Shown: in pieces, positions 2,216 to 61,870 of the stretch
Position numbering within the stretch: the first letter of the stretch is position 1
How the letters are laid out: each line of letters opens with the position of its first letter
Origin: Octopus vulgaris
Lineage: Eukaryota
DNA: 64,000 nucleotides
Direction of reading: 5' to 3'
Assembly: GCA_951406725.2 (NCBI GenBank)
Contig: OX597835.1
Span: 29,078,001 to 29,142,000 of the forward strand
Position numbers and translations under genes: made by a program
Notes under the pieces: generated by a model
What the model saw: the letters and a program-made list of their open reading frames with translations, nothing else
Databases searched by the model: none
Told to the model about the DNA's origin: nothing

Positions 2216-3925
2216 ATGAGGGGATACCCCACCCGACAAAAAACTGGAAGTTTGCAATATTATTTTATTCACTTAATTTCATATGTTTACACATTTATCG
2301 CCTTCAAAGTATTTTCCATTCAAAGCAATGCATCGGCCCATTCGCGTTTACCACTGTTCGAAGCAGTCCCGGAACTCTTGCGAAGCGATGGTTTTTAACG
2401 CCTCCGTCGTTTTGTTCTTCACCTCTTCCACATCTGAAAATTCCCATGGCACTAGCTTTCGTCACCAGTGATGACCATCGAAAAAAATGTCCGGATCAAT
2501 TTGCAGCTGTTCTTTCGGTTTACGACATTTATTCTGTCATGAAAACTTTTGATCTTCCGCGAGCAAGTGAGGCACACATTTTGTTGCATCTCTTTTCATT
2601 CGCAATTTCTCGTTCTAAATTCGTTGGCAGGAGCTCCAAGACGCAGAAGTCATATCAACAAGTTCATCAATTGTTTGGTGACGGCCCTGCAAGATCAGTT
2701 CACGAATTTTCATGATGCTTTCATTTGTTCGGGTGGTCGACAGCCACCCTGAACGAGGTTGGTCTTCAAGCAACAAGCGATCCTTCCTAAAGTGTGAAAA
2801 CCACTCGTAAACCTGTGTTTTGCTCATGGCAGATTCCTTGTAAGCTATTGGGTTCGTGCATAATTATTGCAGCTTTTTTTTTCTACAAATTTTATAGGCG
2901 AAGGATTGGCTGTGTGGTAAGTAGCTTGCTTACCAACCACTTGGTTCCGGGTTCGGTCCTACTGCGTGGCACTTTAGGCAAGTGTCGTCTACTATAGCCT
3001 CGGGCTGACCAAAGCCTTGTGAGTGGATTTGGTAGACGGAAACTGAAAGAAGCCCGTCGTATATATATATATATGTATGTATCTGTGTTTCTGTTTGTGT
3101 GTCTGTTTGTCCCCCTAACATCGTTTGACAACCGATGCTGGTGTGTTTACATCCTCGTAATTTAGCGGTTCGGCAAAGAGACCGATAGAATAAGTACCAG
3201 GCTTACAAAGAATAAATTCTGGGGTCGATTTGATCGACTAAAGGTGGTACTCCAGCATGGCCACAGTCAAATTACTGAAACAAGTAAAAGAGTAAATGAG
3301 TAAGAGTATCAAAAACAATAACATGTAACAAGAAAAACTTTAAATGATTATTTCGGAGCATGTTCACCATCTACTTCAATTTCTGCTTTCTATTTGTTTG
3401 GTAGATGGTCAGATCGTTATTTAACCCTTTAGTTACTGCATTTATCTTGAGATGCTCTGTGTTTCTTTCGATTAATTTTTAAAATACGAAAGAATTTAGT
3501 AAAATTACTTAGTTATCATTAAGCTAGTGTTAGGATCACAAATTGTGACCAAGGTTTGGTGGAAGATTTTAATTCAAATATGACATTTGTACTCAGATCC
3601 AGAGCCGGCTTATATATAATTATTATTGTTCTTGTTGAATAAAATTTGTTGAAAAAAAGCCCCAATAATTATGCACCAACCTAATATTTCAAGCATGAGA
3701 TGTTTCGGCTGCCGTTTTCCCCAGCTGCAAACAGAATTTCACGGAAGCTTGCGGTTATTTCATTTCAACCATCGCAAAAGTCGTGGCAGTGTGAAACCCG
3801 ATGATGACACCGGTCGGGAGACTGATGCCAGAGGGTCGCATCAAGTGACTTCTAGCGGTGGAGGCCTGAACTTCAATGGGCTTGTCCCACAGAGAACATT
3901 TCCGGTTACATTTTGGCACGTCCTC
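2216..3925 (-). pseudogene. Decayed mariner transposon remnant interrupted by a SINE and a TTAA-type MITE fragment
   Basis: ORF 2615-2827 (MSKTQVYEWF...LEDQPRSG...TIDEL) resembles the mariner transposase HTH region. TA-bounded TIR-like ends at about 2216 and 3925. Confidence 0.65.
2897..3306 (+). mobile_element. tRNA-derived SINE family A
   Basis: A box TGGCTGTGTGG and B box GGTTCGGTCC, internal (TA)n, GAGTAAAA-type tail. More than 10 copies in the window. Confidence 0.85.
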
Positions 3926-14674: not shown

Positions 14675-15925
14675 AAACCTGAGCCAAAAATTTCATAGGC
14701 TAGCTATGAAGAAGTGACGATACGGCTGCTGGGAAATTTTGCATGCATCAATTTCAACTCTTTATTAATAACTGTATTATTTCTTTCCAGGTAAACTGAT
14801 TTTGACTGTTTAAGAAGACTTCAAAAGTAAGTAGTAGCGACTTCTCTTGAAAATGGATAAAATTTCGTACCGTGGCGTTATCAAACTAAAAAGGACTGTA
14901 GCCCCCAACGACATTCATGCTTGCATGATTGCCGTATTAGAAGATGATGCTCCAGCTTTATGAATCGTGCAAAAGTGGCCAGCTGAATTTAGGAAGGGAA
15001 AGGAGAGTCTTGAAGCTAGCTTAAGGTCTCCTTTGAGAGAGTAGAGAATATTCTGTACAATGAACTTTGTGTAACGAAGGTTTCTGCTCGGTGGGTGCCA
15101 CGGCCTCTGACACCTGATCAAAAGCGCACCAGGCTGATGACATCAAGGGAAATTCTGACACTGACGCAGGTCCAGCTGGTTTCTTTAAACGCTTTCGAAG
15201 CCAGGATGGAAGTTGGCCTCATCACTTTGAACCAGAGACAAAGAGGAATCCATGCAGTGGAAACACACCTTCGCGCCTGCTCCAGAGAAGGCCAAGATTG
15301 TATCATCTGCTGGGAAAGTGATGGCCTAAGTATTTTAGAATGCAAAAGGCATTGTATTTATTGTAATCAACGAGGTGGTTTGGCAAAAAATGTTCTGCGG
15401 TAATTAAAATGCATTTAATTATGTCCAATTAGATCTCATTCCCACCTAAATTTAAATCGAACTGATGTATTTGTGTGCAGGATGCTGGATTGTTAGTGTG
15501 CACACTGTAATGCAAATTAGAGTCAATCGTTTAGTCGAGTCCTAATTGTAGATTACATATATTTTCGCTGATGAAGCAAAAAATAACCAAATCGAAACAA
15601 GTCAACCGATTATGTTGACCTAAGCATTTGACTGCTTCTCTACTTATCGACCAGACATACATGAAATGCTTCAAACAATGTCAGAATTTCCCTTGATGTC
15701 ATCAACCTCCAGCCTCCAGCATCCTGCACACAAAAGGACTACATCATTAATGGAGGGTACTATGCCAACTTGCTGAAGCAGTTACGAAGGGCTATGCAGA
15801 CCAAAAGCCCAAGAAAATTGAGGAAGGGGCTGTTGTTTCATCAGGAAACTACTCCAGCTCACAAGTCCGTTGTTTCAATGGCAGCTGTAGGGGACTGTAG
15901 ATTTGAAGTGGTTGCCCTATCTGTT
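14675..15925 (+). pseudogene. Decayed mariner transposase interrupted by a pLTR-like insertion
   Basis: WVPRPLT motif at about 15092, AGKVMA at about 15308 and YYANLLKQLR...LLFHQETTPAH at 15758-15863. Confidence 0.8.
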
Positions 15926-16372
15926 CTTAAATTTGAAATACCTAAACAAAACAAAAAGAAAACGTTTTGTAATGCATTATGAATTAATGAATTAATTAAA
16001 GCTGATTGTTAGTGTGCACACTATAATGTAAATTAGAGTCAATCGTTTAGTCGAGTCCTAATTGTAAAATTACTTATATTTTCGTTGATGAAGGAGTAGC
16101 TGGACTAGAAACTAACCAAATCGAAACTAGTCAACCGATTATGTTGACCTAAGCATTTGACTGCTTCTCTACTTATCGACCAGACATACATGAAATGCTT
16201 CAAGCAATGTTAGAATTTCCCTTGATGTCATCAACCTCCAGCCTCCAGCCTCCTGCACACAAATACATCAGTTAGATTTAAATTCAGGTGGGAATGAAAT
16301 CTAATTGAACACAATTAAAGGCATTTTAATTACCGTAGAACATTTTTTGCCAAACCACCTCGTTGATTACAA
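15361..16372 (+). mobile_element. Penelope pLTR-like repeats: inverted segment plus two direct copies with hammerhead-like motifs
   Basis: 15490-15733 is repeated at 16006-16263. 15361-15489 is the reverse complement of 16244-16372. Motifs CTGATGA..CGAAACAAGTC and TTGATGA..CGAAACTAGTC. Confidence 0.65.
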
Positions 16373-17154
16373 GAACAATAGGAATGGGTTATGCAGCATT
16401 TTTATGAATTGAAATCGCAATGATAAATGAAAAGCATTGTAAAACCGAGAGGGGCTTGAAATGTGATTGCAGGATGAGATTACAAAAAAAAAAGCACTGC
16501 AATAGTGTACATTCATATTGCTACACTCTTTACAAATTCAGCGATAAAATCTCGCGATATTGATTTCGCTTTTCTATACTCTGAATTCAAATCAGATCGA
16601 GGTCAACTGTGCCTTATGTCTTTGCAGAGTGGGAAAATGTATCAATCCAGGGAGTTGTATAGACAAAACAGCTAGAACGTTGGAATGCCTGACTTGTGAC
16701 GAAGTTCCAGTTTTATCTGTTTTGAGTTCAAATACAGCTGTAGCCGTTTGTTTCGCCATGGTCTTTTGTATTATGCAAGCTGTATATTTTTTTAATTTTG
16801 GGCTCTTGGAATTATAAATTCAGGATCTCTCTAGTTTTACTTCTCTTTAACTTGGTCTTCTTTTTTTTATTTTCTGCCACTTTCTGCAATTTCTCGGTTT
16901 TCTTAGTTACTGAGGAATCGGAAGGTGTCAGAGTTATGTCCTTGTGTGTCTGAGCTTGCTCTTGCTCGCCTTTGTTTATATGAATCGTGTTATTTTATTT
17001 AGGACACCCACTTCACTGTGGTTCGGTCACCTTCGTGGGTGGTTATTGACGTTGTTTTAGTTTCTGGTAATAACAACAGCAACAAGAACAACTAAAGCAA
17101 TAAAAAACAAATAATTAACATCATAATGGTTTCAAATTTTGGCACAAGCCCAGC

Positions 17155-19604: not shown

Positions 19605-22600
19605 TTACAGATTTATGCTTAAAATAGTGTCGTCTTTCATACTGACCATTTTTGCCACTTTTACCCAATTTTTATTAAAACATTCGTTCGACAAAGCCTT
19701 CCTCTCTATTCTCATCCTCCTTTTCAAGTGGTACTTGAAAAAGTTGACGAGAGACTGACCAGAAAGGAAGGTGTTTGTTTGCAGTCCTTTCAAACGCGTC
19801 CACCACACACATTCTTTCGCCATAGCCATCAGCGTAACGAAAACCGTTTTCCCTTCCCGTTTAAAGGAAGGTGGTGGAACAATATTTACGATAAACTCGG
19901 CCGATAGGCGAGCCCGACCTACACGTGACAACAGCTGTTCGACGAAGGACCACAGCTCTGAAATATCTGGACACTGCACGAGTGCATGCAGAACGGTTTC
20001 GTCGCTCTGACCGCATCTCGGGCAGGTCGGTCCGGTGATGGTTTTCGAACCGTGTCTGTAGCTCTTCTCTCGAACAGGTAGTGCGTCTCGATAGCACTGC
20101 CAAGCCAGGGATTTCTGGAAGTTATCCATAGGCCCCGGCCCGAACGTCGTCCTGAACAGGCGGGTTAGGAATTTCTCGTCGACGCCCAGGTTTGCCCCGA
20201 GTGTGTCGTCGGACCTCCCCTCCACTAGTCCTCTATAGAACGCTTTAGTCATTTGTAAGTTGCACAAGTTTGACCCCGGTCGTTAATGAAGTTCCAGAGA
20301 TGTCGCAGTCTCAGCGCATGCCTGCGCATCATCAACCACGGCATGCCCAGTCCTCCATTCAACGGATGTTGACAGCAAATGGACTTCCTCACCATCGGAA
20401 CGCCACCCTTCCACAGGAAGCGGAAGAGTATGCGTTCCAGTTTGGTGATGGTGGCGTCGGGACAAGGTACGACGGTCAGGCGGTAATCGATGACGGATGC
20501 GATGTACGCGTTCGCCACCTCCGCCCGGCCTTTTAGAGACAGCTTTCTCTCGGCCCATGTTTGGCTGAGAGCGACCACTCTACTCGTGATCTCGTCCCAG
20601 TTCTTATCCATTTGGAGGTCCGGACTGAACCAGACTCCGAGCAATTTAACCGGTCCGTCCGTCCAGCGTCCCACTACTGAGCCGCAGTCGGACGGCATGG
20701 GCTTGCTTCTCCAGGTGCCGAGTAGCAAACCCACTGACTTTTCCGGGTTAATCTTTGCTCCCGTCACCGTTTCGTATTTTCATAGTGTCTCGCCTATCAT
20801 CTTGATGTGTTTGTCGCTCGACACTATGACGGTGACATCGTCTGCATATGCCGACACGCTCGTCTCGCAACCCAGTTCCCGTGGGATGCCCCTCAGTGTC
20901 GCCAGCTTCCGCAGTAGCGGCTCGAGAGTCAATACATACAGAAGCGCCGACAGGGGACACCCCTGACGGATCGAAGGCGTGATGTCAAACGGTTTCGACA
21001 GGTGACCCTTCACCCGAATCACCGATCTGATGCCGCTATACAAGGCAGCGATCCCACCGCGGAAGACGGGACCGAAGCCATCCGCCCTGAGGACGGCCGC
21101 CAAGTACCGATGGTCGACCCTATCGAAGGCTTTAGACTGATCCAAATTGATCAGCGCCCCACCCATGACAGGATCCTTAACTACCCTGTCCACAATGTAG
21201 CGCGTCAGATGGAGGTTGTCATGTATGATTCTGCCCGGCACGGCGCAAGTTTGCGCCCTGTCGACCAGTTTATCAATGACAAGCGCCAACCTCTCGGCTA
21301 TTACTTTGGCCAAAATTTTCAAATCTGCGTTGAGCAGAGTGATGGGCCTGAAATTATCCATAAAATTCCCCTTGTTTGGGTCTTTCTTCAGCAACGTCAC
21401 TGCACCTCGGCTTACGAAACCGGGGATTCTCCCGTTTTGTTGCCAGTTGCAGTAGACTGATGCCAAGAGGTCGCCAAACAAGTCTGGCATTTGACAATAC
21501 AGCTCGTAGGGTAAACCATCCAATCCAGGCGACTTATCCCTCGCGCAGCTCGCCATCGCATCCCGTACGTCAGCGGCTGTGATGGGACTTTCACAACACT
21601 TCGCTTCTCTTGCCGAGAGCCGCGGCAGGTCGGTCAGGTAGGCACTGAAATCCCGCGTTCCGACCCACCACTCACACCAAACAGTCGAGCAAAGTGTTGT
21701 TGAAGGGCCTCACACATCCTTTCGGGTTCGAGTAAACTGCATCCCTGTTGATCTATTAGAGACCGAATGGTTGATCTGTTGCCACGCTGCGCCTCCGCTA
21801 CCCGAGCCTCTCGCGTAGCTTCGATCCCTTCGTTCCTTAAGGCACGCATTTTAGCTCTGACGACGCAACCTTCGTGCTTGGCGTTGAGGTGTTGGTCGAG
21901 GGCCATCCTCGCAGCCAGCATGTTGGTTGCGCTGCCAGTGGTAAGTGCCTCTTCTAGTTTCTTAACCAGGTCTCCCTCTACTCTATTTCGATCTATCACT
22001 AATCCTTTGCTAAACCTAATTGATTCCGATTTTATTGCCATTTTCAGGGCGAACCACCAGTGGTTGTTAACGACGGCTTCCGTCAGCGCTCTCTTAATTA
22101 ACTCGCTAATCCGGTTCCTGTAAACCTGTCGCACTAAGAGCGACGTGTTCAGTTTCCACCTGCCTATGTGTTTTATCTAAGTCGAGCGTACACGTAACAA
22201 ATTTGCGATCTGTGTAGCTGACTATTTTAAATTGTGGACATCCTACACTATCCCTATCCGCTGTCCTGCATAGAATTCCATCTAGATAAGATCTCGACGA
22301 TCCGACGCGGTTTGTCCAAGTCCACGTTGGCACGTTCGGATGGTCGAGTTAGAACCTGTCAGACAAATGGAAACGTCTGAGTAGGTCTTTGAGGCACTTA
22401 CACCCCCTTCTATTCCTATCCATTACCACATAATCTAGATGCGTGTCCAAGGTAGCGTTCCAATCCCCTACTAACAGTAAAGGTCTAGACGTACCCAGGA
22501 AAACCTCTAGACGTCTGAAGAAATCCGCCCGACCCATTAAGGACGGTGCATAAACTGCCATCAAACGGAATGCACACCCATTTCTGCCATCCACGTCCAA

Positions 22601-22882
22601 GACAACCAGCCTACCCTCCGGGTCTAGGAATATTGCTCTTACTTTTACATTTAGACTCTTTCGAAAAAGCACCGCGGTACCTCCACCACCGATGTTCGGC
22701 AGACAGGGAGAAATATAATTGTCAAATTGATTGCCAAACATGGACGCGAGGGCCCGAGGCTTGCTGAGTCTGGTTTCACTGATAGCTACTATATCCACGT
22801 TTAGTGACTTGATGTTTAGAAGGTAACCTTGCTTCCAAGCCGACGCCAAGCCACGCGCATTCACACAACCTAATTTAAGCAT
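19605..22882 (-). pseudogene. LINE ORF2 (APE endonuclease, reverse transcriptase, C-terminal zinc motif), broken by at least 5 frameshifts
   Basis: Motifs NARGL, ISET, GDWN, SPGLDG, FRPITLLNAD, KAFDRVDH, QGCPLS, YADD and CPRC..ETVLHALVQC, spread over 6 ORF pieces. Confidence 0.92.
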
Positions 22883-22949
22883 AATTGACGTTTACGAAAA
22901 TTGTGTTTCACACATAAACATTGGAAGAGACAAGAGGCAAGAGGGAAGG

Positions 22950-24236
22950 TCACTTACTCATTTCGAAAGTTTCATTTTTTTCTTCTTCTTTTGTAGTATC
23001 TTTGATGAGGTGTTTGTATAGTTTTTTGGAGAGGTATCGTTGAAACCCGCCTACCGCATTTGGAAATATTGTTTTCAGTGTATGGCGTTGTGTTTGTGTT
23101 ATGTGTACAATTTTTATGTGCTTCGGTGTTGTGGTGCGCGGATGATTGTTTGTCTTAAAGTCATCTTCACAGATGTCCGTGTTGGATACAATGTAATCCA
23201 TTAATTTTTTATTGTCTGTGTCTATTGCAGTTAGTTGTGTGTGTGGTTTTGCGGGTTCATTGATTTTTTGATTGTCTAGGGGGATGCTGTCCAGAGTTAA
23301 ATATCTCCCTGCTTTACTTCCTTGTTTGGTGGGCTTTTTTGATCTTTTCCTTTTACCCCCTGTGGCTATTTGCCATTCCGTCGAACTTTCGTCGTCCGAC
23401 GTATCAGAAGGGGGTAAAGGCAAAGCATTTGTGTTAATATGTATGCTTGTAGAAATTGTTGATGTTTTGTGCGGTGTTTGTGTTGTTATGGTGTTAGTGT
23501 TAGAATTTGTCTTCTCGTCACTGTTTTCTGTCTTTTTAATTGTCGTCCTGGGTGTTGGTGTGGATCTATCTTTTGGTTCAGCATGATGATTTGGTTGCGT
23601 CGTCAACGGTGATTTTGTTGGTACTGTTTCTTTTCTTGGTGATGTTGTTGGGGTTTGTTCGCTGGTTTGTTGTTTTTCTTCTTGGCATTGTTCCATAATT
23701 GAGTGTGTTGGTGTTGGTGTTGGCAACAAGGGTTTTTTATTTGTTTTCTGATTTGTTCTTTCTTGTTTTTTCTGTGCTAGAGCGCACTTGGCAATTAAAT
23801 GCTCTGGGCTGCCACAGTTGTAGCATCTAGGCTTTTTGCCTTCTGCCACAACATATAGCCTTTGCCCATTTTCTAGGTGGATCCTATCGGGTAGGTTCTC
23901 GATAGAGGCCCCCTCAATCTGGATGGGCACTACTATTGTTTTTCCACCCCAATTGTCGTTTAGGTACACGGCGGTTTCTAAAATATTGATCTTTTTCAAA
24001 TGGTAACAGATTGCCCTTGTTATCCATTTGTTCGGGATCTCGGGGGGTACATTTTTAATAGTAATTCTACTCACTCTCTGGCCTTTGAAATAAGGTACCA
24101 TTTTGATATCATCATTTTCCAAAGACTCGGTAGAGTGAACTTTTGCCACTTCCTGGTTAGGGAAGCGGACCACTACTGTGTTAAACTGGGGACCCCAGTT
24201 TATATATTCTCTTTTTTCATTATGTTCTTTAAACAT
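22950..24236 (-). CDS. LINE ORF1 protein (gag-like, CX2CX4HX4C knuckle); N-terminus probably extends upstream across a frameshift
   Basis: 428-aa ORF containing CYNCGSPEHLIAKC, directly upstream of the APE domain. Confidence 0.8.
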   Translation of the reverse strand: MFKEHNEKREYINWGPQFNTVVVRFPNQEVAKVHSTESLENDDIKMVPYFKGQRVSRITIKNVPPEIPNKWITRAICYHLKKINILETAVYLNDNWGGKTIVVPIQIEGASIENLPDRIHLENGQRLYVVAEGKKPRCYNCGSPEHLIAKCALAQKKQERTNQKTNKKPLLPTPTPTHSIMEQCQEEKQQTSEQTPTTSPRKETVPTKSPLTTQPNHHAEPKDRSTPTPRTTIKKTENSDEKTNSNTNTITTQTPHKTSTISTSIHINTNALPLPPSDTSDDESSTEWQIATGGKRKRSKKPTKQGSKAGRYLTLDSIPLDNQKINEPAKPHTQLTAIDTDNKKLMDYIVSNTDICEDDFKTNNHPRTTTPKHIKIVHITQTQRHTLKTIFPNAVGGFQRYLSKKLYKHLIKDTTKEEEKNETFEMSK

Positions 24237-28640: not shown

Positions 28641-29104
28641 ATGTCCACTTTTCCATGTTTGCATAGGTCTGATGGAGATCTTTGAGGGAGATTTTTCTGC
28701 AGCAGCATGTTCTTCCTCTTGCCAACCCACACCTGTTTCTAAGTAAGGGTATATTTCCTTGTGGCAAGACACAATCGGCAGCAGATTTCAATCTCACTTC
28801 GTGGCATCTTAGGCAAGTGTCTTCTACTATAGCCTTGACAACCCGTAGACGTGGCAATATGGTAAGATGTTTGCTGAACCAGAGACCTGCAGATGTCAAT
28901 GTGTGTCTGTTTCATCTTATTCCCCATCACCGCTGTTGGTCATGTCTACTATAGTCAAGACACGTAATCTTGACCTGAATTCTTAACTGGAAACTGAAAG
29001 AGAGACCTGCTGTGTGTGTGTGTCTGTTTGTGCCTATGGCATTTCAAACTTAAAACATGGTCCTTATTTTAAAGGAAGACGCAGTTTCATTGAAGGGGAT
29101 TTTC

Positions 29105-29540
29105 TCTTTTACTCTTTTATTTGTTTCAGTCATTTAACTTCGGCCATGCTGGAGCACCGCCTTTAGTCGAGCAAATCGACCCCAGGACTTATTCTTTGTA
29201 AGCCTAGTGCTTATTCTATTGGTCTCTTTTCCCAAACCACTAAGTTACGGGGACATAAACACACCAGTGTCGGTTGTCAAAACGATGTTGAGGGGACAAA
29301 CACAAACACACAAACGTATACACACACATACATATACATATATACGACAGGCTTCCTTCAGTTTCCATCTACCAAATCCACTCACTCCTTCAGTTTCCAT
29401 CTACCAAATCCACTCACAAAGCCCCGGTCTGCCCGAGGCTATAGTAGAAGACACCTGCCCAAGGCGCCATACAGTGGGAATGAACCCAGAACCATGTGGT
29501 TGGTAAGCAAGCTACTTACCAAACAGCCATTCCTGTGCCT
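29105..29540 (-). mobile_element. SINE family A
   Basis: Full-length reverse copy with a small internal tandem duplication at 29355-29415. Confidence 0.85.
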
Positions 29541-30400: not shown

Positions 30401-31484
30401 AGATGAGCAAAATACTGCTGTGCATTTTGTCCTGTGTGCTAATGATTCTGCCAGTTTGGCATCTCCTATTGTGGTTAATAATATGAGTTGGAATTTGAAC
30501 ATGTAATGTTTTACTTAATGTCCAATTTTTTTTTGGGGTCTGTTGTTGTTATTGATTACTTCTTGCTTCCAGGTAAACTCTGATGAAGTAGACTTATAAT
30601 CTAAAGGCACCTTAGCTGAGTCCCAAACTCAGCATGGTAAATGGCCATATTATTCAATGTCTTGTGTTCTTCCTTTTATTTTTTTCTTTATGATTCCAGC
30701 CTATCCAAGATAACAAAAGACAAATTTCTTTTTAAAATTGATCTAAATTAAAATCCTCCTTCAAAATTTCATTCAAGTTATATTCCCAACACCAGATTCA
30801 GAATGACAAAGTCGCCAGTGGTACGTAAAAGACAACATGTGATGATGATGGACGGCATTTCAACAAAGAATGTTAAAAAATTCGTTAATGTAGTGTGCAA
30901 TGAGAAGGTGGCTTGGCTGCTGTTTCTTTCGGGTTGAATGAGTACATAAACCTTTCTCATTGACTCACTCTCTCCACGGCTGAGTTTGTTTCATATGTTT
31001 GTTGTGTGTCTGTAGATTATAAAAACAGCCACAGAGGAGACAGGTAAGAAGATAGGTAAGTTCCTGACTTTAAGGGTATCATGAAAGTCCTGGCCTTCCG
31101 AGTTCTTTTACATGACTTAGAAAAATTGAAGAACTGCTCCAATAAGTGTGTGAATCTGAGAGGGGAATATATTGAATAGAATCATAATTAACTGATCTTC
31201 CTGTATTTATTTTTGCACAAAGTCAGGAACTTTTCAGCACCTCCTTATATATTATATTTATATATATATATATAAAATTTAATAAGGGTAGAAATTGATA
31301 TTAATCACTTAAAACCAGTGGCCCAGCATATTAAAAAAATCCGAAGATTAAAATATTTTTACATACAAAATTTAAAGGAATGACCATTTGAAAGATACAC
31401 AAAAATATAATTGGTTGGACTCCATGCATGCGAGACTCCGGTCTTCTAAATGTTTTGCATTCTTGTCCCAGTTTGTATTTCTTT

Positions 31485-34077: not shown

Positions 34078-34500
34078 CAGGAGTGGCTGTGTGGTAAGTA
34101 GCTTGCATACCAACCACATCGATGCGGGTTCGGTCCCATTGCGTGGCACATTGGGCTAGTGTCTTCTACTATAGCCTCGGGCCGACCAAAGCCTTGTGAG
34201 TGGATTTGGTAGACGGAAACTGAAAGAAGCCCGTCGTATATACGTATATGTATATATATATATACATATATATACGTGTGTGTGTGTTTGTGTGTCTGTG
34301 TTTGTCCCCCTCCCCCAACATCGCTTGACAACCGATGCTGGTGTGTTTACATCCCCGTAACTTAGCAGTTCGGCAAAAGAGACCGATATAATAAGTACTA
34401 GGCTTACAAAGAATAAGTCCTGGGGTCGACTAAAGGCGGTGCTCCAGCATGGCCGCAGTCAAATGACTGAAACAATTATAGGAATGAAAGAATAAAAGAG
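34078..34500 (+). mobile_element. SINE family A
   Basis: Full-length copy. Confidence 0.9.
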
Positions 34501-40076: not shown

Positions 40077-40500
40077 CAGGAGTGGCTGTGTGGTAAGTAG
40101 CTTGCTTACAAACCACATGGTTTCAGGTTCATTCCAACTGCGTGGCACCTTGGGCAAGTGTCTTCTACTATAGCCTCGGGCCGACGAAAGCCTTGTTAGT
40201 GGATTTAGTAGACGGAAACTGAGAGAAACTCGTCGTATATATGCATATATATATGTGTGTGTGTATGTATGTATGTGTGTGTATATGTTTGTGTGTCTTT
40301 GTTTGTCCCCCAACATCGCTTGACCACCGATGAGGGTGTGTTTACGTCCCCGTAACTTAGCGGTTCGGCAAAAGAGACCGATAGAATAAGTACTAGGCTT
40401 ACAAAAATAAGTCCTCGGGGTCCATTTGCTCGACTAAAGGCAGTGCTCCAGCATGGCCGCAGTCAAATGACTGAAACAAGTAAAAGAGTAAAGAATAAAA
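40077..40500 (+). mobile_element. SINE family A
   Basis: Full-length copy. Confidence 0.9.
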
Positions 40501-40501
40501 G

Positions 40502-43168: not shown

Positions 43169-43299
43169 ATAAATTAAATAGCGAGATACTATTGAGAATC
43201 CAATAATATATTTATATCATATTAGCATAATATCATATAACATAAGCAATTATTAAAAAAAACCATAAAAGGCCAACAAATTGTTTCGACTCTCTTTTT

Positions 43300-43698
43300 C
43301 TCTTTTCTCTTTTTACTTGTTTCAGTCATTTTGACTGCGGCCATGCTGGTGCACCGCCTTTAATCGAGCAACTCGACCCCGGGACTTATTTTTTGTAAGC
43401 CCAGTACATATTCTATCGATCTCTTTTGCCGAACCGCAAAGTGACGGGGACATAAACACACCAGCATCGGTTGTCAAGCATTGCTAGGGGGACAAGCACA
43501 GACACACACACATACACGCACATACACATATATACATATATACGACGGGCTTCTTTCAGTTTCCGTCTACCAAATCCACTCACAAGGCTTTGGTCGGCCC
43601 GAGGCTATAGTAGAAGACACCTGCCCAAGTTGCCACGCAGTGGGACTGAACCCGGAACCATGTGGTTGGTAAACAAGCTACTTACCACACAGCCACTC
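43300..43698 (-). mobile_element. SINE family A
   Basis: Full-length reverse copy. Confidence 0.9.
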
Positions 43699-44109: not shown

Positions 44110-44520
44110 CCTGTCTACCTAGCTACCCACCTATCTATCTAATTACCTACCTACCTACCTACCTACCTACCTACCTACCTACCTACCTACCTACCTACCT
44201 ACCTACCTACCTTACTACCTACCTACCTACCTACCTACCTACATGCCTGCCTACCTACCTACCTACCTACCTACCAACCAACTTACCTACCTACTTACCT
44301 ACCTACCTGCCTGCCTGCCTACCTACCTACCTACCTACCAACTTACCTACCTGCCTACCTACCTACCAACCTGCCTACCTACCTGCCTGCCTGCCTACCT
44401 ACCTACCTACCAACTTACCTACCTACCTACCAACCTGCCTACCTACCTACCTACCTACCTACCTACCTACCTACCTACCTACCTACCTACCTATCTACCT
44501 ACCTACCCACTTATCTGCCT
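44110..44520. repeat. (CCTA)n microsatellite
   Basis: Seen directly in the sequence. Confidence 0.95.
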
Positions 44521-44537
44521 ACTGTCATACATACATA

Positions 44538-45336
44538 TGCACAAATGGGAAAGAGATGCAGGAAAAGCAGTAAATGGGACAAAGGATGCATATTTGTGGG
44601 GTGCACACTGAAGATATCACCCACATCATAAGCAGTTGTCCGAAAATCTCATCGCGGTATTATCTACCGATGGGATATGAGGTTGTAGCTAGGACACTAT
44701 AATGAAATCCGTCGGAAGGAAAATACCGAGGACAAAGAAGTAAGAACCCAAAGTATGGTAGAAACCATAGCCCCTCACAATAAAAAGAAGTCCTGGTAGA
44801 ATGTCCCAGTGAAGACCTCAATAAAATGTAAGTACAACATACCTGATATAATGATTTGGGATTGAGAATAGAAACTGCGCAGCGGATGTTAATATAAAGC
44901 TGAAGATCGGTGAAAAAGAGACTACCTACACTGAACTATTGAGAAATCTATCCAGATTACAAGTGCAGATGTATACTTGTAATTGTTGTGGCACTGGGAT
45001 ATGTAGCACACTACCTAAAAAACAATCTTGAGAAATTAGGCTTCCCAAAAGCAGAAAGGAGAAAGCTAATTCGGAGATAACAGATCCAATCCATCACCGG
45101 AACTGTAAAAATCTGTAAAACTTTCCAGAAGTTTAAATATATATGAACATGTCTAGATATGCAACTATATGCATGAGAATGCATACATAAAACAAAACAT
45201 ACAAATCTGCACATATACATACATGCAAACAAAAATACCCTGTTTTGATGTTGAAATTCCAATGAAGGAGCCTTGGAACTAGGTTAGAAACCGGTTCTTT
45301 CTCTATTGGCAACAAATTTTGAAATAAAACTGAAAA
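44538..45336 (+). pseudogene. 3' end of an RLE-class (R4/Dong-like) non-LTR retrotransposon
   Basis: CGVHTEDITHIISSCPK (CCHC), NIPDIMIWD (PD motif), C-terminal GTVKICKTF. Flanked by (TACA)n. Confidence 0.8.
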
Positions 45337-45399
45337 TACATACATCGTATGGGAAGAAGTATGTCGAGACTGCTGACTCAAAGGAATACTGCTAGAGCC

Positions 45400-45760
45400 T
45401 AACAATAAAAACTGCCACCAAATTAAAACATAACTGGCTCAGCTTTGTTGTTTGGACTCACGCATGAAAATCACACTTTATAATACTTTGCGCACTTGAT
45501 GTCAATGTGGTGAGAAAAATGCATGAAAAGGCGGATAACAGCGGACCATTGAAGACAAGTTTGCAGATCCAGTATGCAAGATACCCGTTCAGCTTCATAC
45601 TCGTTATTGTTGGAACTACAAGTTCAATACCAGCCTGCCTGGATCAAATTGTAACTGAATTTGGATTGGTGAAGTAAAAACGTATCTCCTTAACTCATAA
45701 GTTACAAATGGCTACTATATCTGGAAACTTTAAAATTTGGTAAACGCTCTAAGGATACCG
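45400..45760 (+). pseudogene. Older RLE-class LINE 3' fragment
   Basis: YPFSFILVIVG...KLQMATISG.FKI resembles the C-terminus of the upstream copy. Confidence 0.5.
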
Positions 45761-45908
45761 AGGAGGACCACTTACACAGCAGACGATGACAATTTTCTTT
45801 TCATTACGAACTTGCCCCGGGAAGGTGGCCGGTCAAAAATATACTAAAAGTTAGGAGAATGAGTGAATATCTACCCACCCATCCATCCATACCACATTTA
45901 TATATATA

Positions 45909-46092
45909 GTTTTGTCAGTGAACAAGTCGCGGTTTCAAAGCGGCGAAAATATTTTGATAGAAATTAAACTTAAATGTGAAACTAACGGTTTTTGTGCGTT
46001 TTTAAATAGCTTACAAGCATCTTCCACACCGCAATTGTTTTTGTTTCAGCACACGATCTCAAATTAAGTCACTTGCTATGCAAGTACATCTC
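45909..46092 (+). mobile_element. (TA)n-flanked element with G3-C8 hammerhead variant; same family as 51320-51515
   Basis: TTTGTCA-GTGAACA-A-GTCGC..GCGGC-GAAA-ATAT-TT-TGATAGA. Confidence 0.7.
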
Positions 46093-46096
46093 GGGA

Positions 46097-46134
<38 letters not shown>

Positions 46135-46259
46135 AAATGTAATATGTGACAATTATTCGGTAGCCATGATAAAACTCCGAATAATTGTCACATTTTACAT
46201 TTACAGATAAATTCCTCTATTTACATAATACCGAGGTCTCTTTCATTCTTTTGTTGTTT

Positions 46260-46297
<38 letters not shown>

Positions 46298-46330
46298 GTC
46301 TCTCTGTCACTTTTGCTCTCTGTCTTTCTG

Positions 46331-46402
<72 letters not shown>

Positions 46403-46629
46403 CCTATCTACTTACCTATCTATCTATCCATCCATCTGACTATCTATCCAACTATCTATCTATCCAACTATCTATCTATTTCTCCTTCCTCCCCTCTCTC
46501 TCTGTCTCTCTCTCTTGATATCCTTTTTGATATGATGAGAGTGATATAGTAATTAGTATTCTTAGTGTGGTCGCATTGAACTTCCTCATCTAACGTACGG
46601 AAATTAATACATAGGCACAGCAGCACTCG

Positions 46630-46702
<73 letters not shown>

Positions 46703-47117
46703 TGTGCGCGCGCGTGTTTGTGTTCCTGTTTTATATTATAGTCTTTAACTAATTCGCTGCCACAAATCTGCGGGGAAATCCTACCTAATCAGTTATTATT
46801 TGAAACATGCAGCGTTTAATATGTTTAGTAAGTAATATTCATAGACAAATTTAAGCAAACATTCTACCGCGTCTCTCGGTTGAAGGCACCTGCTGGCAGA
46901 ATCGTTGGCGTGCCGGAAGAAATGCCTAGCGGCAATTGTACCGGATTTATATTCCGAGTTCAAATTTCGCCGACGTCGCCTACGCCTTTCATTCCTTCGG
47001 GGTCGATAAAATAAGTGCCAGTTGAGAGCTGGGATCGATGTAATCGTCTAACCCCTCTCCTTCAAATTTCAAAATTTGAGACCTTGCACCTATAGTAGAT
47101 ATATATATATATATAAT

Positions 47118-47429
47118 AAAATAGAAAATGGAACAAGAACGTAAGACATCCGGACAACTAGGTGATACAAAAGGGGACAAATAAACATCCAGACAGGCGA
47201 TACAAAAAAAAACAAAACACGGAGGGGTCATTCGAAGCCTTTTATCTTCAGTCAAGAACCGGATCATGCTCACAATTTCGGCTGATTAATCTTGAGATTG
47301 CTCTAATCTGGCCAGCGCCAAGAAAAAACTAAGCTAAGAGCATTAGATTCCTTGGAAAAAAGCATCGAATGTATACGAAAACAAGAACGGAAAAACAGAC
47401 GATGTTACACGAATATAAATACAAAATAA

Positions 47430-47524
<95 letters not shown>

Positions 47525-47933
47525 CCATAAGGCTTAATTTCCATACACGCCAGCTGAATTCAATTCGTTCCCAGTAGAAAGACGCCTGTTGTTACGTCCT
47601 GTTACTATTATTATTATTATTATTGTTTTTATTGTATTTTGTATTCATATTCGTGTAACATCTTGTGTTTTTCCGTCCTTGTTTCGTATACATTCGTTGC
47701 TTTTACCCCAGGAATCTAATGCTCTTAGCTTAGTTTTTCCTTGGGGCTGGCCAGATTGGAGCAATCTCAAGATTAATCAGCCGAAATTGTGAGGATGATC
47801 CGGTTCTTGACTGAAGATAAAAGGCTTCGAATGACCCGTCCGTGTTTTGTTTTGTATCGTCTATCTGGATGTTCTGTTGTCCCCTTTTGTATCACTTGGT
47901 TGTCCGGATGTTTTGCGTTCTTGTCCCATTTTG

Positions 47934-47940
<7 letters not shown>
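47118..47940. mobile_element. Two inverted copies of a ~320-bp element (47118-47435 minus, 47622-47940 plus) with (TA)n at the outer ends
   Basis: Direct reverse-complement match with scattered substitutions. Confidence 0.85.
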
Positions 47941-47985
<45 letters not shown>

Positions 47986-48012
47986 CGGCGTACGTACACT
48001 TTGTTCTCTTAT

Positions 48013-48090
<78 letters not shown>

Positions 48091-48111
48091 ATGTGTGTGT
48101 GTGTGTGTGAA

Positions 48112-48420
48112 GGCGCAATGGCCCAGTGGTTAGGGCAGCGGACTCGCGGTCGTCGGATCACGGTTTCGACTCCCAGACCGGGCATTGTGAGTGTTTATTG
48201 AGCTAAAACACCTAAAAGCTCCACGAGGCTCCGGCAGGAGATGGTGGCGGTCCCTGCTGTACTCTTTCGCCATAACTTTCTCTCACTCTTTCTTCTTTTG
48301 GTCTGCTCACTTAGCCAGCGGGATGGCGTCATTTGAAGGATAATACAATGCGAAGCGCATTGTGACCAGCGATGTGTAGCAAGCAACATCTGATAGCCTG
48401 GTCGGTCACGGTGATCACCC
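48112..48420 (+). mobile_element. tRNA-derived SINE family B; partial reverse copy at 52010-52158
   Basis: Head GGCGCAATGGCCCAGTGGTTAGGGCAGCGGAC and B box GGTTTCGACTCC. Confidence 0.8.
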
Positions 48421-48504
48421 TGATATATATATATATATATATATATATTGTATAAAAGGGCTTAGTAAAATAATTAATAACTAATTAATTTTACCCTCAA
48501 TTGT

Positions 48505-48550
<46 letters not shown>

Positions 48551-48660
48551 TACATGCATTAAAGACTTTTTCACTTCCCGAGCGTTATACTAATACATCT
48601 GTTTGTTGTCTACAGAATCGGTCTTCGTCTTTTGAATTTTTTTGTGAATTTTCCACCTAT

Positions 48661-50322
<1,662 letters not shown>

Positions 50323-50423
50323 ATATATATATATTAATAATAGAGTTTTTTATAAGTAAATTTTTATTTAGATTATATAGATTATTTATATCTTTAAAAT
50401 ATTGATTATATTTTAGGTTTTGA

Positions 50424-50477
50424 AACCACCTGAAGAATGTCTCATAGAAGTGCTGACACGAAACGATCGTAGTGGTT
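50424..50477 (+). ncRNA. Canonical-core type I hammerhead ribozyme with palindromic stem III, in a (TA)n-flanked ~330-bp element (50336-50663)
   Basis: AACCAC-CTGAAGA-aTGTC(13 nt)GACAc-GAAA-CGATCG-TA-GTGGTT. GUA triplet and ACGATCGT palindrome. Confidence 0.85.
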
Positions 50478-50660
50478 ATTTTAATTATATTTAATTTTAT
50501 AAATTTTTTTATGTATTGGCTTAAGTCTTTCTTTGTTTGATTTGCATAATAGTGGTTTTGTCTCTAATTAATATAATATAATATTTTACTATAAAATTGG
50601 ATTCAATCCTAAATCTGATTTTTCCCTGTAAATTTGGATTTATTCCCTAATATTTATTAT

Positions 50661-50819: not shown

Positions 50820-51254
50820 GTTTAAATATTTGTTGTGCAAGATTTTTTATGTGAAGTCGTGTGTTGAAACAGATTTCGTGTTATTTTGCTTCAGTTTTAT
50901 TTATTTTTTTACATTAATCTTAATCTTATTTCGGTCAGAGTTCTTTCGTCACACTCCTGTGACCGCATCAGTGGTCCTTTGTTTTCTTCTTTCTTATTTG
51001 TGTCTCTTCTTACTAACCGTCAGCCATTTTGTATTTCAAAATGGAAATACAAAATGGCTGACGGTTAGTAAGGAGAGACACAAAGAAAAAACAAAGGACC
51101 ACTGATGCGGCCACAGGAGTGTGACGAAAGTGCTCTGGCCGAAATAAGATTAAGATTAATGTAAAAAATAAATAACACTGAAGCAAAATAACACCAAATA
51201 TATAGTGCGTGTGTTTTTATTGGCTAAACTGGCAAAATGACCATTCCGAAATAT

Positions 51255-52471: not shown

Positions 52472-52502
<31 letters not shown>

Positions 52503-52893
52503 GGCGCAGGAGTGGGTGTGTGGTAAGTAGCTTGCTAACCAGCCACATGGTTCCGTGTTCAGTCCCACTGCGTGGCATCTTGGGCAAGTGTCTTCTGCTA
52601 TAGCTCCGGGCCGACCAATGCCTTGTGAGTGGATTTGGTAGACAGAAACTGAAAGAAGCCTGTTGTATATATGTATATGTATGTGTGTGTGTTTGTGTGT
52701 CTGTGTTTGTCCCCCTAGCATTGCTTGACAACCGATGCTGGTGTGTTTGCGTCCCCGTCACTTGGCGGTTCGGCAATAACTGGGCTTACAAAGAATATAT
52801 ATATATAAAAATCCCGGGGTCGATTTGCTCGACTGAAGGCGGTGCTCCAGCATGGCCGCAGTCAAATGACTGAAACAAGTAAAAGAGTAAAAG
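52503..52893 (+). mobile_element. SINE family A
   Basis: Full-length copy. Confidence 0.9.
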
Positions 52894-54123
52894 ATATATA
52901 TATATATATATATATTTACACATACATACAGTGTATGTATGTATGTACGTATGTATGTATGTGTGTATGTATGTATGTATGTATGTATGTATGTATGTAC
53001 GTATATATGTGCTCACGTCTTCGTGCTTGTGTCTGACTCCTACTACTGCTGGGCAACCGCTGTAAGTTCGTTTCACTTGCTGCAAGTTATCCGCTCGACA
53101 AAAGATCCCATAGAATATGTATTCAACTGAAAAATGTATCAGGTTCGATCTATTCCACGCAGTCTCTTGAAGGTTGAGCCAAATATCACCCGCTCTCCGA
53201 TGAATAGAGACCGTAAAAGTTAAAAGATAAGGTTATGGAAATTATAGTTGGCTAAACACATGACTCTTATACAAAGATTACTCGAAATTATATCCTTCAT
53301 TATCATCATATGTAACAGCTTATATCACAGGTCAAACGCTATCTTTAATATCGCATGTTAGCGCTGATATGTGTATGCGTTTCTTCGTGTGTGTGTGTGC
53401 GTGTGTGTGTGTGTGTATGAATTTGTGTGCATGCATTTGCATATGTGCGTTTGCTCGTATATATGTGTACCAGTTCAGTAAGTGTGTAAGCTTTATTTGT
53501 CTGTCTACAGGGGAACATTTATCTTACACGCATGCGCCAATGTACTTGGATGCGTGATTTTTCGAGAACCTTTCTTTGCTCTCCTTCTCACTTTCTCTCT
53601 TTCTTTCTCTCTCTCTCTCTCTCTCTCTCACACACGCACGCACTTGCACGCTCTCTTTCTCACCCACCAACTCTATTTCCCCTTTCCCCACTAACCACCA
53701 CAACCAACACCAACACCACTACCATCACTGTCACCACAGCTACTAGCACCACCACCGTCACCGCCGTCACCACCACCACCACCACCACCATCACCACCGC
53801 CGTCGCCACCGCCGCCACCGCCGCCACCACCTCCACCACCAGGTTACCTATCGTATTCTAAGTGTAACGCTATAAGCCTGAAGTAGCTTAAATCACCTTT
53901 TGATTCTGACAACCTCTTTTACATGCGGAATTTCTATAAACACACCAACACCCCCACCTTCATCTCTCTCACACCCAAATCTCTCTCCCCCTTTCTCGTT
54001 TTCCCTCAGCCTATATCTAAAACTCACTTTTCTTTTTCTTTGTGTATGCAAATATATGTGTATGTATGTATGCATGCATATCAATCTCTCTCACTCTCTC
54101 TCTCCACACACACACACACACAC

Positions 54124-57036: not shown

Positions 57037-58436
57037 AAGTAGCTTGCTTACCAACCATATAATTTCGGGTTCAGTCTCACTGCGTGGCACCTTGGGCAAC
57101 AGTCTTCTACTTTATCCTCGTGCCGACCAAAGCCTTGTGAGTGGATTTGGTAGACGGAAACTGAAAGAAGCCCGTCGTATATATATATATATGTATGTAT
57201 GTGTGTGTTTATATGTTTGTGTGTCTGTGTTTGTCCCCTCAACATTGCTTGACAACCGATGCTGGTGTGTTTACATCCCCATAACTTAGCAGTTTGGCGA
57301 AGAAGACCGATAGAATAAGTACTAGGCTTACAAAGAATAAGTCCTGGGGTCGATTTGCTCGACTAAAAGGCGGAGCTCCAGCATGGCTACAGTCAAATGA
57401 CTGAAACAAGTAAAAGAGTATGTATGTATGTATGTATGTATGTATTTATGTATGTATGTATGTATGTATGTATTTATGTATGTATGTATGTATGTATGTA
57501 TGTATGCATGTATGTATGTATGTATGCATGTATGTATGTATGTATGCATGTATGTATGTATGTATGTATGTATTTATGTATGTATGTATGCATGTATGTA
57601 TGTATGCATGTATGTATGTATGTATGCATGTATGCATGCATCACTGATAACGTGACACATTTGGTATTTACCTGATACCAAACCGGCCCTAAATTCAGCA
57701 AAAGTATGTTTAAAGGCTAAGCACTATTCAATTATTTTACAGATAATTAAAGTGCCGGTCTGGCAGAATCGCTAGCACGCCAGATACAGTGTTTAGTGGT
57801 ATCTCGTCCATCTTCACGTTCAAATTCCACCGACACTGACCTTGCCTTTAATCTTTTTGGGGTCGATGAAATAAGTGCTATGTCGTTGTAATCGATTAGC
57901 CCCCATCTTCACCAAAATCTAAGGTCATGTGCCTTTAGTAGAAATAATTATTTTAGAGGTTGTTGTGACTACAGCTAACGGCTCCTCGCTTAGAGGCCAG
58001 AGTATTCAGCTCACGATCATGAGTTCGATTCTCGGCGGTGCGCTGTGTCCTTGAGGAAGGTACTTTACTTAGCGTTACTCCAGTTCACTCAGCTAGCAAA
58101 ACCCAATTTTACCTGTAGTTGAATGTGCGAGCCTTGTCCTGGTCGATGAATCTCCCTCACAACTACGTTGAGGGAACCAGTGTGTATAGAGTGCTTAGCC
58201 ATGTGCACTTTAATTTCACGAGCGGATTCTTCCGTTGATCGAATTACATAGAACGCTTGTCGTCGTAAATGTTGGAGATCCTTAAAATGACTGCACTTGC
58301 AACCCCAACCTTCTAGATGCTGGTGGTCGGGAATTTCTTAAAATCTGCTCTAATTTACAAGGATAAACTTCAAATTCCTGCAGCCCCAAACTTGTTTATT
58401 GGTACTTTATCCAGTATTTATAAACCCGTTTCATAA

Positions 58437-60674: not shown

Positions 60675-61870
60675 TATTAGGCCATTACGAATGAAACGTC
60701 CGATTTTGAACTAAAAGTTTATTTTATTTTTATCTTAACAAAAAGCAATGCAGTTAATCAAAGTATGCACCTAAATTATCAACACAATTTTGCCATTTTA
60801 TTGGTTGCATATTTATACCAGTAGTGAAGAATTTTGGAGAACAAGAGGTAATAAAATTACGAAAGGTTGCTTTTGCATCTTCTTCAGATTTGAAGTGTTT
60901 TCCTTGCAAAAAGTTGTCTAATGCCTGGAAAACTTGAGTCAGTTGGTGTAAGGCCTGGTGAATATGGTGGATGACAGAGCAGTTCCAAGTTCAGTTCCTG
61001 TAACCTGAGTAGCGTTATTTGTGCAACATATCGTCTTGCATGAGAATTGGCCTGTCTCTATTGATCAATCTCGGTTGTTTAATTGCAAGTTCACTCATCA
61101 TTTCATCCAATTGGTTGATGTATACATCTGCTGTAATTGACTTACCAGGTCTCATGAAGCTGTAGTAGATGACACCAGTGCTGTACCACGAAACAGACAC
61201 CTTTAGCTTTTTTTGGTGAATATTCTTTTTGGATTATGTTTTGGAATTTGGTCTCTAGACAACCACTGTGCAGAACACTTGCTAGTATTCGAAAGAATCC
61301 ACTTTTCATCATACGTAATAATTCGATGCAAAAGTGGTTCACTTTTATGCCGTGACAGCAAAGAACAGCAAATTTCAAGACGACGTGTCATTTGATGCTT
61401 GTTTAGTTCGTGTGGTGACCACTTGTTCGGCTTCTTTACCTTGCCGATATGTTTCAGATGGTCCAATGCAGTTGGAATCGAAACATCAAACCTTATTGCT
61501 AACTCACGCGTAGTTTGAGATGTATCCGCTTCCACTACAGTTTCTAGCTCATTATCCATGTTGGCCTCAAGTCTACCACGGGGCTGATTTTCAAGAGTAA
61601 AGTCACCAGACCGGAACTTCCATCGACGTACAGTACTCTCATTCGCCACATCTTTGAACACCTCATTGATGTTTCGATCTGTCTGGGATGCATTGGTTCC
61701 ACGACGGGAACTCATATTCATAAACAAAACGAATTTTTTACGAATTTGGGTTAACAAAAATTGATTTTCAAGAGAAAACTCACAATTATAATAAGACACC
61801 ATGAATTGCATTTCGAAAAGAGATGATGTAAGTCTTCAATGTTGTAAAACAAAGAATTGTCAGGATAAAA
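60675..61870 (-). pseudogene. Decayed mariner (Mos1/Hsmar-type) transposon
   Basis: ORF 61203-61811 has HTH domains, WSPHEL and IITYDEKWI. Downstream QDD and HSPDL-like motifs are frameshifted. Confidence 0.85.

Follow-up and report, generated by a model that had tools for sequence, protein, structure and literature searches.

We identified a motif on the plus strand of a 64-kb stretch of the Octopus vulgaris genome (64,000 nucleotides in all, hereafter the window) that is probably a self-cleaving hammerhead ribozyme of an unusual kind, the chain of which, as read from its sequence, would be open within the catalytic core, between A9 and G10.1. From 5' to 3', the parts of the motif are a stem II strand; strand b of a fourth helix, helix X; a stem III strand, the AUC triplet and a stem I strand; the linker UUAAU; a stem II strand, GAAA and a stem III strand; strand a of helix X; and a stem I strand followed by CUGAAGA. 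The motif lies in the right arm (47600-47958, plus strand) of an inverted pair, and a second copy lies in the left arm (47106-47464, minus strand), the two arms being 88% identical over 354 columns. The features of the motif are as follows:

47745-47749 (+): predicted 5' strand of stem II (G10.1 = 47745), 5/5 pairs with 47778-47782
47751-47758 (+): strand b of helix X, the predicted clamp between stems I and II, 7/8 pairs with 47796-47803
47761-47766 (+): stem III strand and AUC triplet, with the cut predicted at 47766/47767 by analogy with the hammerhead consensus
47767-47772 (+): stem I strand 3' of the predicted cut, 6/6 pairs with 47805-47810
47773-47777 (+): linker UUAAU, 5 nt, from stem I to stem II
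47778-47790 (+): block G, comprising the 3' strand of stem II, G12-A13-A14-A15.1 (47783-47786) and a stem III strand
47796-47803 (+): strand a of helix X
47805-47817 (+): stem I partner and CUGAAGA (C3 = 47811, N7 = 47815, A9 = 47817); predicted 3' end of the ribozyme
47818-47826 (+): variable 5-nt stretch and GGCU, drawn as the stem II strand in the initial annotation of this DNA and an alternative partner here
47245-47317 (-): left-arm copy of the motif, in which the upstream stem II has a C.C mismatch at 10.1-11.1

Every nucleotide of the hammerhead core (C3, U4, G5, A6, N7, G8 and A9; G12, A13, A14 and A15; U16 and H17; consensus from PMC3088659) was found in both copies, and the AUC triplet is one that cleaves fast (PMC1636495). 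The initial annotation had assembled a hammerhead from three segments, A (47761-47772), C (47779-47790) and B (47805-47826), and these read as it claimed; the non-cyclic strand order, the cut site and the short linker between stems I and II also stand as drawn. Stems I and III, given as 6 bp and 5 bp, form 6/6 and 5/5 pairs, with a G.U pair at the end of stem III, and both directly adjoin the core. As stated, the segments are identical in the inverted copy: the sole difference between the arms within 47761-47826 is at 47794, a position that falls between segments C and B. Across the whole window, no match to an Rfam family attained the gathering score.

Eckert, Friedrich, Weinberg and Weinberg (2023; PMC10085705) describe hammerheads as arrangements of three blocks: S contains the cut site, G contains GAAA, and C consists of CUGANGA together with its strands of stems I and II. 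The order A-C-B, which the initial annotation took for an undescribed topology, is that of their type SGC (HRIMA-1 and variants), which was published and demonstrated to cleave in that paper; in the parts of the paper available to us, type SGC was found only in metatranscriptomes. The initial annotation overlooked helix X, and the fold that it proposed is less unusual than the corrected one.

There is no connection of A9 to 10.1, either direct or through 1-2 nt: the chain is open at this point in the fold that we favour, and a 5-nt insert precedes GGCU in the alternative. In the right copy, the closing pair 10.1-11.1 beside G12 is G47745-C47782. This pair is broken in the left copy by the C.C mismatch, so that the left copy is probably impaired, and only the downstream GGCU remains there as an intact stem II partner. 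Downstream pairing is Watson-Crick at 4/4 positions in both copies; stacking energies are -10.9 kcal/mol for the upstream stem II versus -8.3 kcal/mol for the downstream one. The upstream pairing (GGCUG/CAGCC) had been listed in the initial annotation as a competitor of the ribozyme, which it probably is not, as the helix is conserved with covariation across those related elements that are covered below. It had also been proposed that substitutions in the left copy weaken the competing hairpins; two substitutions do exist, at 47745 and 47758, the latter of which converts a G.U pair of helix X to A-U.

When the right copy was folded with nested-folding programs, the four helices had pair probabilities of 0.00-0.11, z-scores were unremarkable, and the output contained no hammerhead fold. 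Such programs cannot draw pseudoknots, and 5/6 helix pairs cross in the four-helix fold, so that they are unable to judge it. Misfolding into competing structures is plausible. We rejected an inner hairpin (47753-58/47762-67) as the conserved fold, since it is broken by 2/4 family variants and, by eye, has no counterpart in Naiad_Amil or Naiad_Obim; it may be an inactive conformer.

Naiad 3' ends and variation within the repeat family

We compared the motif by eye with the 3' ends of 52 consensus sequences of Naiads, a group of Penelope-like elements (PLEs), from the supplement of PMC8557442, covering the last ~300 nt of each (about 600 nt for six), except for the end of the last record. The four helices of the window, in the same order and with links of 1-2 nt, were seen in 8/52 ends. 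These belong to five lineages (Obim/Ovul, Esco, Amil/Aacu/Anas, Chem-3 and Movir-2), and they include two octopus families and one squid family. In these eight, the partner of the strand that precedes GAAA lies upstream of block S and always begins with G at 10.1, and strand b, 1-2 bases beyond the stem II strand, pairs with the strand preceding the stem I partner of CUGANGA. Helix X is 5-10 bp long in the five lineages, and the linker UUAAU is identical in Naiad_Amil/Anas/Aacu and Naiad-2_Movir. Across the window and the five lineages, with Aacu (two mismatches) set aside, 141/143 tallied pairs form, mostly with 2-4 pair types per position and with U16.1-A15.1 invariant; the tally is a description rather than a test, because helix ends were picked by eye. 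The catalytic nucleotides are kept across the five lineages while the helices change, and the triplets (AUC, GUA, AUA and GUU) fit the NUH rule. Within 14 nt past A9, the best partner for stem II has 4 bp in the window, 5 bp (2 of them Watson-Crick) in Obim/Ovul and a single pair in each of the remaining four lineages. A stem II partner after CUGANGA is thus missing in 4/5 lineages, which makes a fold that opens between A9 and G10.1 the likely one.

Other layouts were seen by eye among the same Naiad ends. Six nematode Naiads (Nbra-1, -2, -3, Hcon, Hpol and Asuum; File S5) have what appears to be a complete type CSG layout with a long clamp helix formed by strands a and b, and four arthropod Naiads (Ptep, Smim, Dst-1 and Dst-4) have an apparent S, G, C order with a varied stem II. 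In five arthropod records (Naiad_Ptep, Smim, Dst-1, Dst-2 and Dst-4) the GAAA block lies ahead of CUGANGA, and block S was seen in 4/5, lying 230-250 nt upstream in Dst-1 and Dst-4; their stem II is short, inserted or a local hairpin. In the remaining 34/52 ends, over the lengths covered, no hammerhead was resolved by eye. Twister-like motifs were seen near the 3' end in Movir-1, Chem-1, Chem-2, Chem-4 and several bivalve and hemichordate Naiads, with no hammerhead seen there.

The repeat that carries the motif is present in sequencing runs of four organisms, at word shares of 0.20-0.38 (11 rows). We placed contigs from one run per organism on 413 bases (10,507, 11,286, 4,179 and 6,393 contigs), with 47526-47639 skipped as repeat. 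Summed depth peaked over 47736-47819 in 4/4 runs; in run X1, it was 2.0-3.1 million over this segment versus 0.19-0.70 million at 47652-47721 and 47834-47903, and the final 35 bases of the compared stretch were likewise of high depth. This suggests a copy number in the tens of thousands, a rough estimate from the ratio of peak depth to the depth of listed contigs, which is itself no copy number. Many contigs of the family lack 57-63 nt at 47848-47911, which corresponds to a single unit of a short sequence duplicated in tandem in the tail.

Variants were taken at a depth share of at least 4%, with 40/54 rows covered; the shares are of contig depth. Among the 40/54 rows, the variants within 47745-47817 were 47753 A>G, 47754 G>T, 47757 T>C, 47763 A>G, 47772 A>T, 47773 T>A, 47790 T>C, 47791 G>T, 47793 G>A, 47801 C>T and 47815 A>G. 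The only core change among these rows was at the free position N7 (47815 A>G, 4-10% of depth), and none of the variants in them fell within the upstream stem II or at an invariant position of the core. The variant 47790 T>C, at 96-99% of depth, changes the terminal G.U pair of stem III in the window to G-C, keeping the stem, and stem III is also preserved by 47763 A>G (9-19%). Helix X is repaired or kept by 47753 A>G (10-31%), 47757 T>C (27-57%) and 47801 C>T (9-11%). Without a matching change in the partner base, 47754 G>T (0.5-12%) and 47772 A>T (6-11%) each disrupt a pair; no such partner change was among the 40/54 rows. Overall, 5/7 helix variants within the family keep pairing, versus an expected proportion of 0.39, a difference that is not significant (P 0.09). 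The loose-end consensus at 47768 (X1 only) and that at 47789 (4/4 runs) have two compensatory stem I pairs, G at N7 and a perfect partner for strand b. They may represent a second subfamily with compensatory changes in stem I, a reading that joins two separate loose-end lines overlapping by 9 letters. In the downstream stretch, 47819-21 are variable, and the 10.1-11.1 pair drawn in the initial annotation is lost with 47823 G>A (4-10%).

It is possible, though unlikely, that the fold is derived from a hammerhead but does not cut, or cuts only with the protein of the element, and that the reverse transcriptase uses it as a signal for binding or templating. The interrupted core strand and the existence of competing folds are consistent with this reading, as is the precedent of one PLE the hammerhead of which cleaved only with protein, was dispensable for insertion in vitro and had no reads ending at its site (PMC11167929). 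However, five lineages keep the catalytic nucleotides while their helices change, N7 varies freely, and the triplets obey the NUH rule; in addition, the same region of other Naiads in the supplement apparently holds twister-like motifs.

A second alternative, which we consider improbable, is an active type SGC hammerhead as first drawn, with GGCU (47823-26) as its stem II strand after the 5-nt insert and the upstream strand as a decoy or a switch. In its favour are the four Watson-Crick pairs in both copies, the left copy retaining this form alone; a weak analogue in the Obim/Ovul consensus sequences; and the apparent use of a downstream partner by some of the arthropod Naiads compared. Nevertheless, this helix is the weaker of the two in stacking energy, 47823 G>A removes its closing pair, and its partner is lacking in most of the related lineages compared. 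The insert is also longer than the 1-2 nt that were the most known to Eckert et al. between A9 and stem II of type SGC, as stated in the parts of their paper available to us (PMC10085705). The pairing of GGCU with AGCC that the initial annotation drew does exist, but it is probably not the true stem II, and the open core remains our preferred reading.

The carrier element and its setting

The inverted pair is 355 bp and is embedded in (TA)n, with the 3' ends of both arms pointing outward into (TA)n. The locus consists of the following features:

47600-47940 (+): right arm, the 3' end fragment of a high-copy repeat, (TTA)n passing into (TA)n
47106-47464 (-): left arm, an inverted copy, 88% identical, its 3' end outward into (TA)n
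47430-47599 (no strand): centre, comprising a 76-nt unique spacer and the left-arm microsatellite (CAA)n(TAA)n
31445-31482 (+): 38-nt stub of the 3' end of the motif-bearing repeat, then (CA)n(TA)n (E 0.017)

The two arms are an old head-to-head, 5'-truncated insertion. They differ at 3/73 motif positions versus 40/281 positions elsewhere (Fisher p 0.016), which indicates selection only if the arms derive from different templates.

As far as sequence features can tell, the repeat is likely to be the 3' end of a Naiad-type PLE. Naiads (Craig et al., 2021; PMC8557442) are described as inserting into (TA)n, with a truncated copy in inverted orientation at the 5' end, and as having very abundant short 3' ends. 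The locus resembles them in its insertion into (TA)n, its inverted, 5'-truncated neighbour copy and its short 3' ends, as well as in the motif layout shared with 8/52 ends. The same text describes Naiads as lacking a canonical hammerhead, although some have "half cores" (noted as "HHR_core" or "HHR_half_core") from which GAAA is separated by 35-50 nt on one side or the other; it differs from our description in giving these half cores no fold, and the motifs of the window repeat were not found in its consensus files. Specifically, 0/5 exact 11-letter motifs of the repeat were found in the consensus files of PMC8557442, in which line breaks could mask a match. No open reading frame with an N-terminal GIY-YIG and a C-terminal RT was found by eye in 44500-50500, or in Pfam among the 24/82 open reading frames of the window that were scanned. 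Given that there is no linked open reading frame and no motif match, the repeat would at most represent a further Naiad family or a derivative that is non-autonomous. For a nearby RT remnant, the best named relative is from a cuttlefish (51% identity), which, like the microsatellite-rich DNA, points weakly to a cephalopod.

The window holds several other elements. A 168-nt near-perfect palindrome in (TA)n (587-752) has a type I hammerhead layout in each arm, with U4C (core at 681, plus strand, and 658, minus strand), and these layouts resemble those listed for Hydra-clade elements. An inverted pair at 50905-51168 has a type I hammerhead-like layout in each arm, with A9 changed to C (core at 51102, plus strand, and 50971, minus strand). 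A broken LINE-type retrotransposon (19605-24236, minus strand) retains zinc knuckle, endonuclease, RT and zf-RVT pieces, and 61203-61811 (minus strand) is a remnant of a Mos1-type transposase HTH. A MITE-like element (15358-16375) has 132-bp inverted ends (93%) flanking a 250-bp direct duplication (90%). There are also at least 8 near-full copies of a ~400-bp SINE-like interspersed repeat:

2893-3306, 29100-29540, 34078-34500, 40077-40501, 43294-43698, 48897-49315, 52499-52894 and 57037-57420: copies of the SINE-like repeat

The long inverted repeat with TA at both ends, in a window with mariner remnants, would also fit arms that are the terminal inverted repeats of a MITE-type DNA transposon inserted at TA, with the ribozyme motif as a passenger. 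We regard this as very unlikely: the lone 38-nt 3' stub on a microsatellite, the uneven depth along the arm and the layout shared with Naiads fit retroposed 3' ends, and the MITE reading bears on the carrier rather than on the fold.

Two descriptors were used to assess chance, one for the layout of the initial annotation and one for the open core, both composed after the motif was seen. The former matched both copies in the window and nothing on either strand of 150 dinucleotide-shuffled 64-kb windows; the latter matched only the right copy and, in the same 150 shuffles, gave 5 loose matches and 0 of equal quality. Pattern scans gave 0 matches in viral contigs and 0 in prokaryote genomes, and we discarded 56 matches in metagenomes as chance because they had no similarity to the repeat and none had more than 3 stem I pairs. 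Despite the post hoc descriptors and the loose open-core matches in 5/150 shuffles, a chance arrangement of short words is extremely improbable given that no shuffle equalled the motif in quality, the pattern of variation in the family and the recurrence in five lineages.

Relation to known hammerheads and proposed mechanism

The nearest functional likeness of the motif would be to the SGC and CSG hammerheads; it fails the criterion of an intact block C, for which reason we do not class it as SGC. With type SGC, as described in the available parts of PMC10085705, it shares the order of S, G and CUGANGA, a pseudoknotted core, a helix linking the far ends of stems I and II, and a short linker between these stems (typically 3 nt in SGC, with 0-8 in the descriptor, and 5 nt in the window); in that description, SGC ribozymes need a stem I-II interaction helix. 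Unlike SGC, in which block C is continuous, the motif has its stem II strand and strand b predicted 5' of all else. Type CSG, which that paper reports from two metagenomic sequences only, has the same circle of parts opened elsewhere and the same clamp helix, but its block C is intact and first. The three orders may be viewed as openings of one circle (S, G, strand a, stem I strand, CUGANGA, stem II strand, strand b): SGC opens before S, CSG before strand a, and the window motif between A9 and 10.1. That paper presents a scheme of six types that assumes uninterrupted blocks, a scheme in which a chain opened between A9 and G10.1 has no place, and its descriptors demand CUGAUGA(U)G directly before stem II, so that they would miss the window motif. 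Within the literature searched, the term "type-SGC" is confined to this one paper.

According to PMC4209133, positions 9 and 10.1 of PLE hammerheads are usually separated by one nucleotide, so that the A9-10.1 joint is flexible. With the type I and minimal hammerheads of PLEs and non-LTR retrozymes, as described in the available parts of PMC4209133 and bioRxiv 10.64898/2026.07.22.740005, the motif shares its position in a PLE terminal repeat and the occurrence of opposite-orientation copies a few hundred bases apart. Those hammerheads belong to the circular type I, they frequently have a tiny palindromic stem III and act as dimers, and retrozymes are tandem; by contrast, the motif has a 5-bp stem III, a non-circular order and inverted copies. 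We found no support for the suggestion in the initial annotation that it is an obligate dimer, as its 5-bp stem III has no palindromic loop. In the literature searched, in which subscription papers are poorly covered, we found neither a core-opened hammerhead nor permuted hammerheads from Naiads, and no experiment on a hammerhead working without the A9-10.1 bond.

We propose that helix X, which lies 1 nt from stem II and 1 nt from stem I, would clamp both stems in the manner of the SGC/CSG interaction helix, and would thereby replace the missing A9-10.1 bond. A9 would be kept in place by its usual pairing and stacking on G12 and G10.1-C11.1, a core geometry known from the crystal structure. 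The metal-binding phosphate of A9, we presume, sits 5' of the chain break of the motif. Cleavage in cis after C47766 is predicted for plus-strand transcripts, and the products would stay joined through helices II, X and III. By its position, the motif would take the place that a type I hammerhead has in other PLEs, within their terminal repeats, and it may there trim tandem read-through transcripts. Processing of tandem transcripts has been proposed for other PLE hammerheads in the available text of PMC8557442.

On balance, we lean slightly towards the view that the open A9/G10.1 core is active and adds a seventh layout to the natural hammerheads, one that is standard for the Naiads of cnidarians and cephalopods and present here in tens of thousands of copies, and that Naiads open one non-circular circle at different points (CSG in nematodes, SGC in arthropods and the core-opened form in cnidarians and cephalopods). 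If so, the openings in Naiads would show non-circular permutations arising through duplication of terminal repeats. The core-opened form, if it works, would break the assumption of the six-permutation scheme that the CUGANGA block is indivisible, and would mean that a helix clamp can substitute for a bond within the catalytic core. Non-circular hammerheads would also move from rare metatranscriptome contigs to high-copy animal genomes. The form in the window is likely to be the hammerhead that Naiad elements were reported to lack, and this would explain the apparent absence of hammerheads from Naiads, which are among the most abundant invertebrate retroelements: the descriptors would have been blind to this form.
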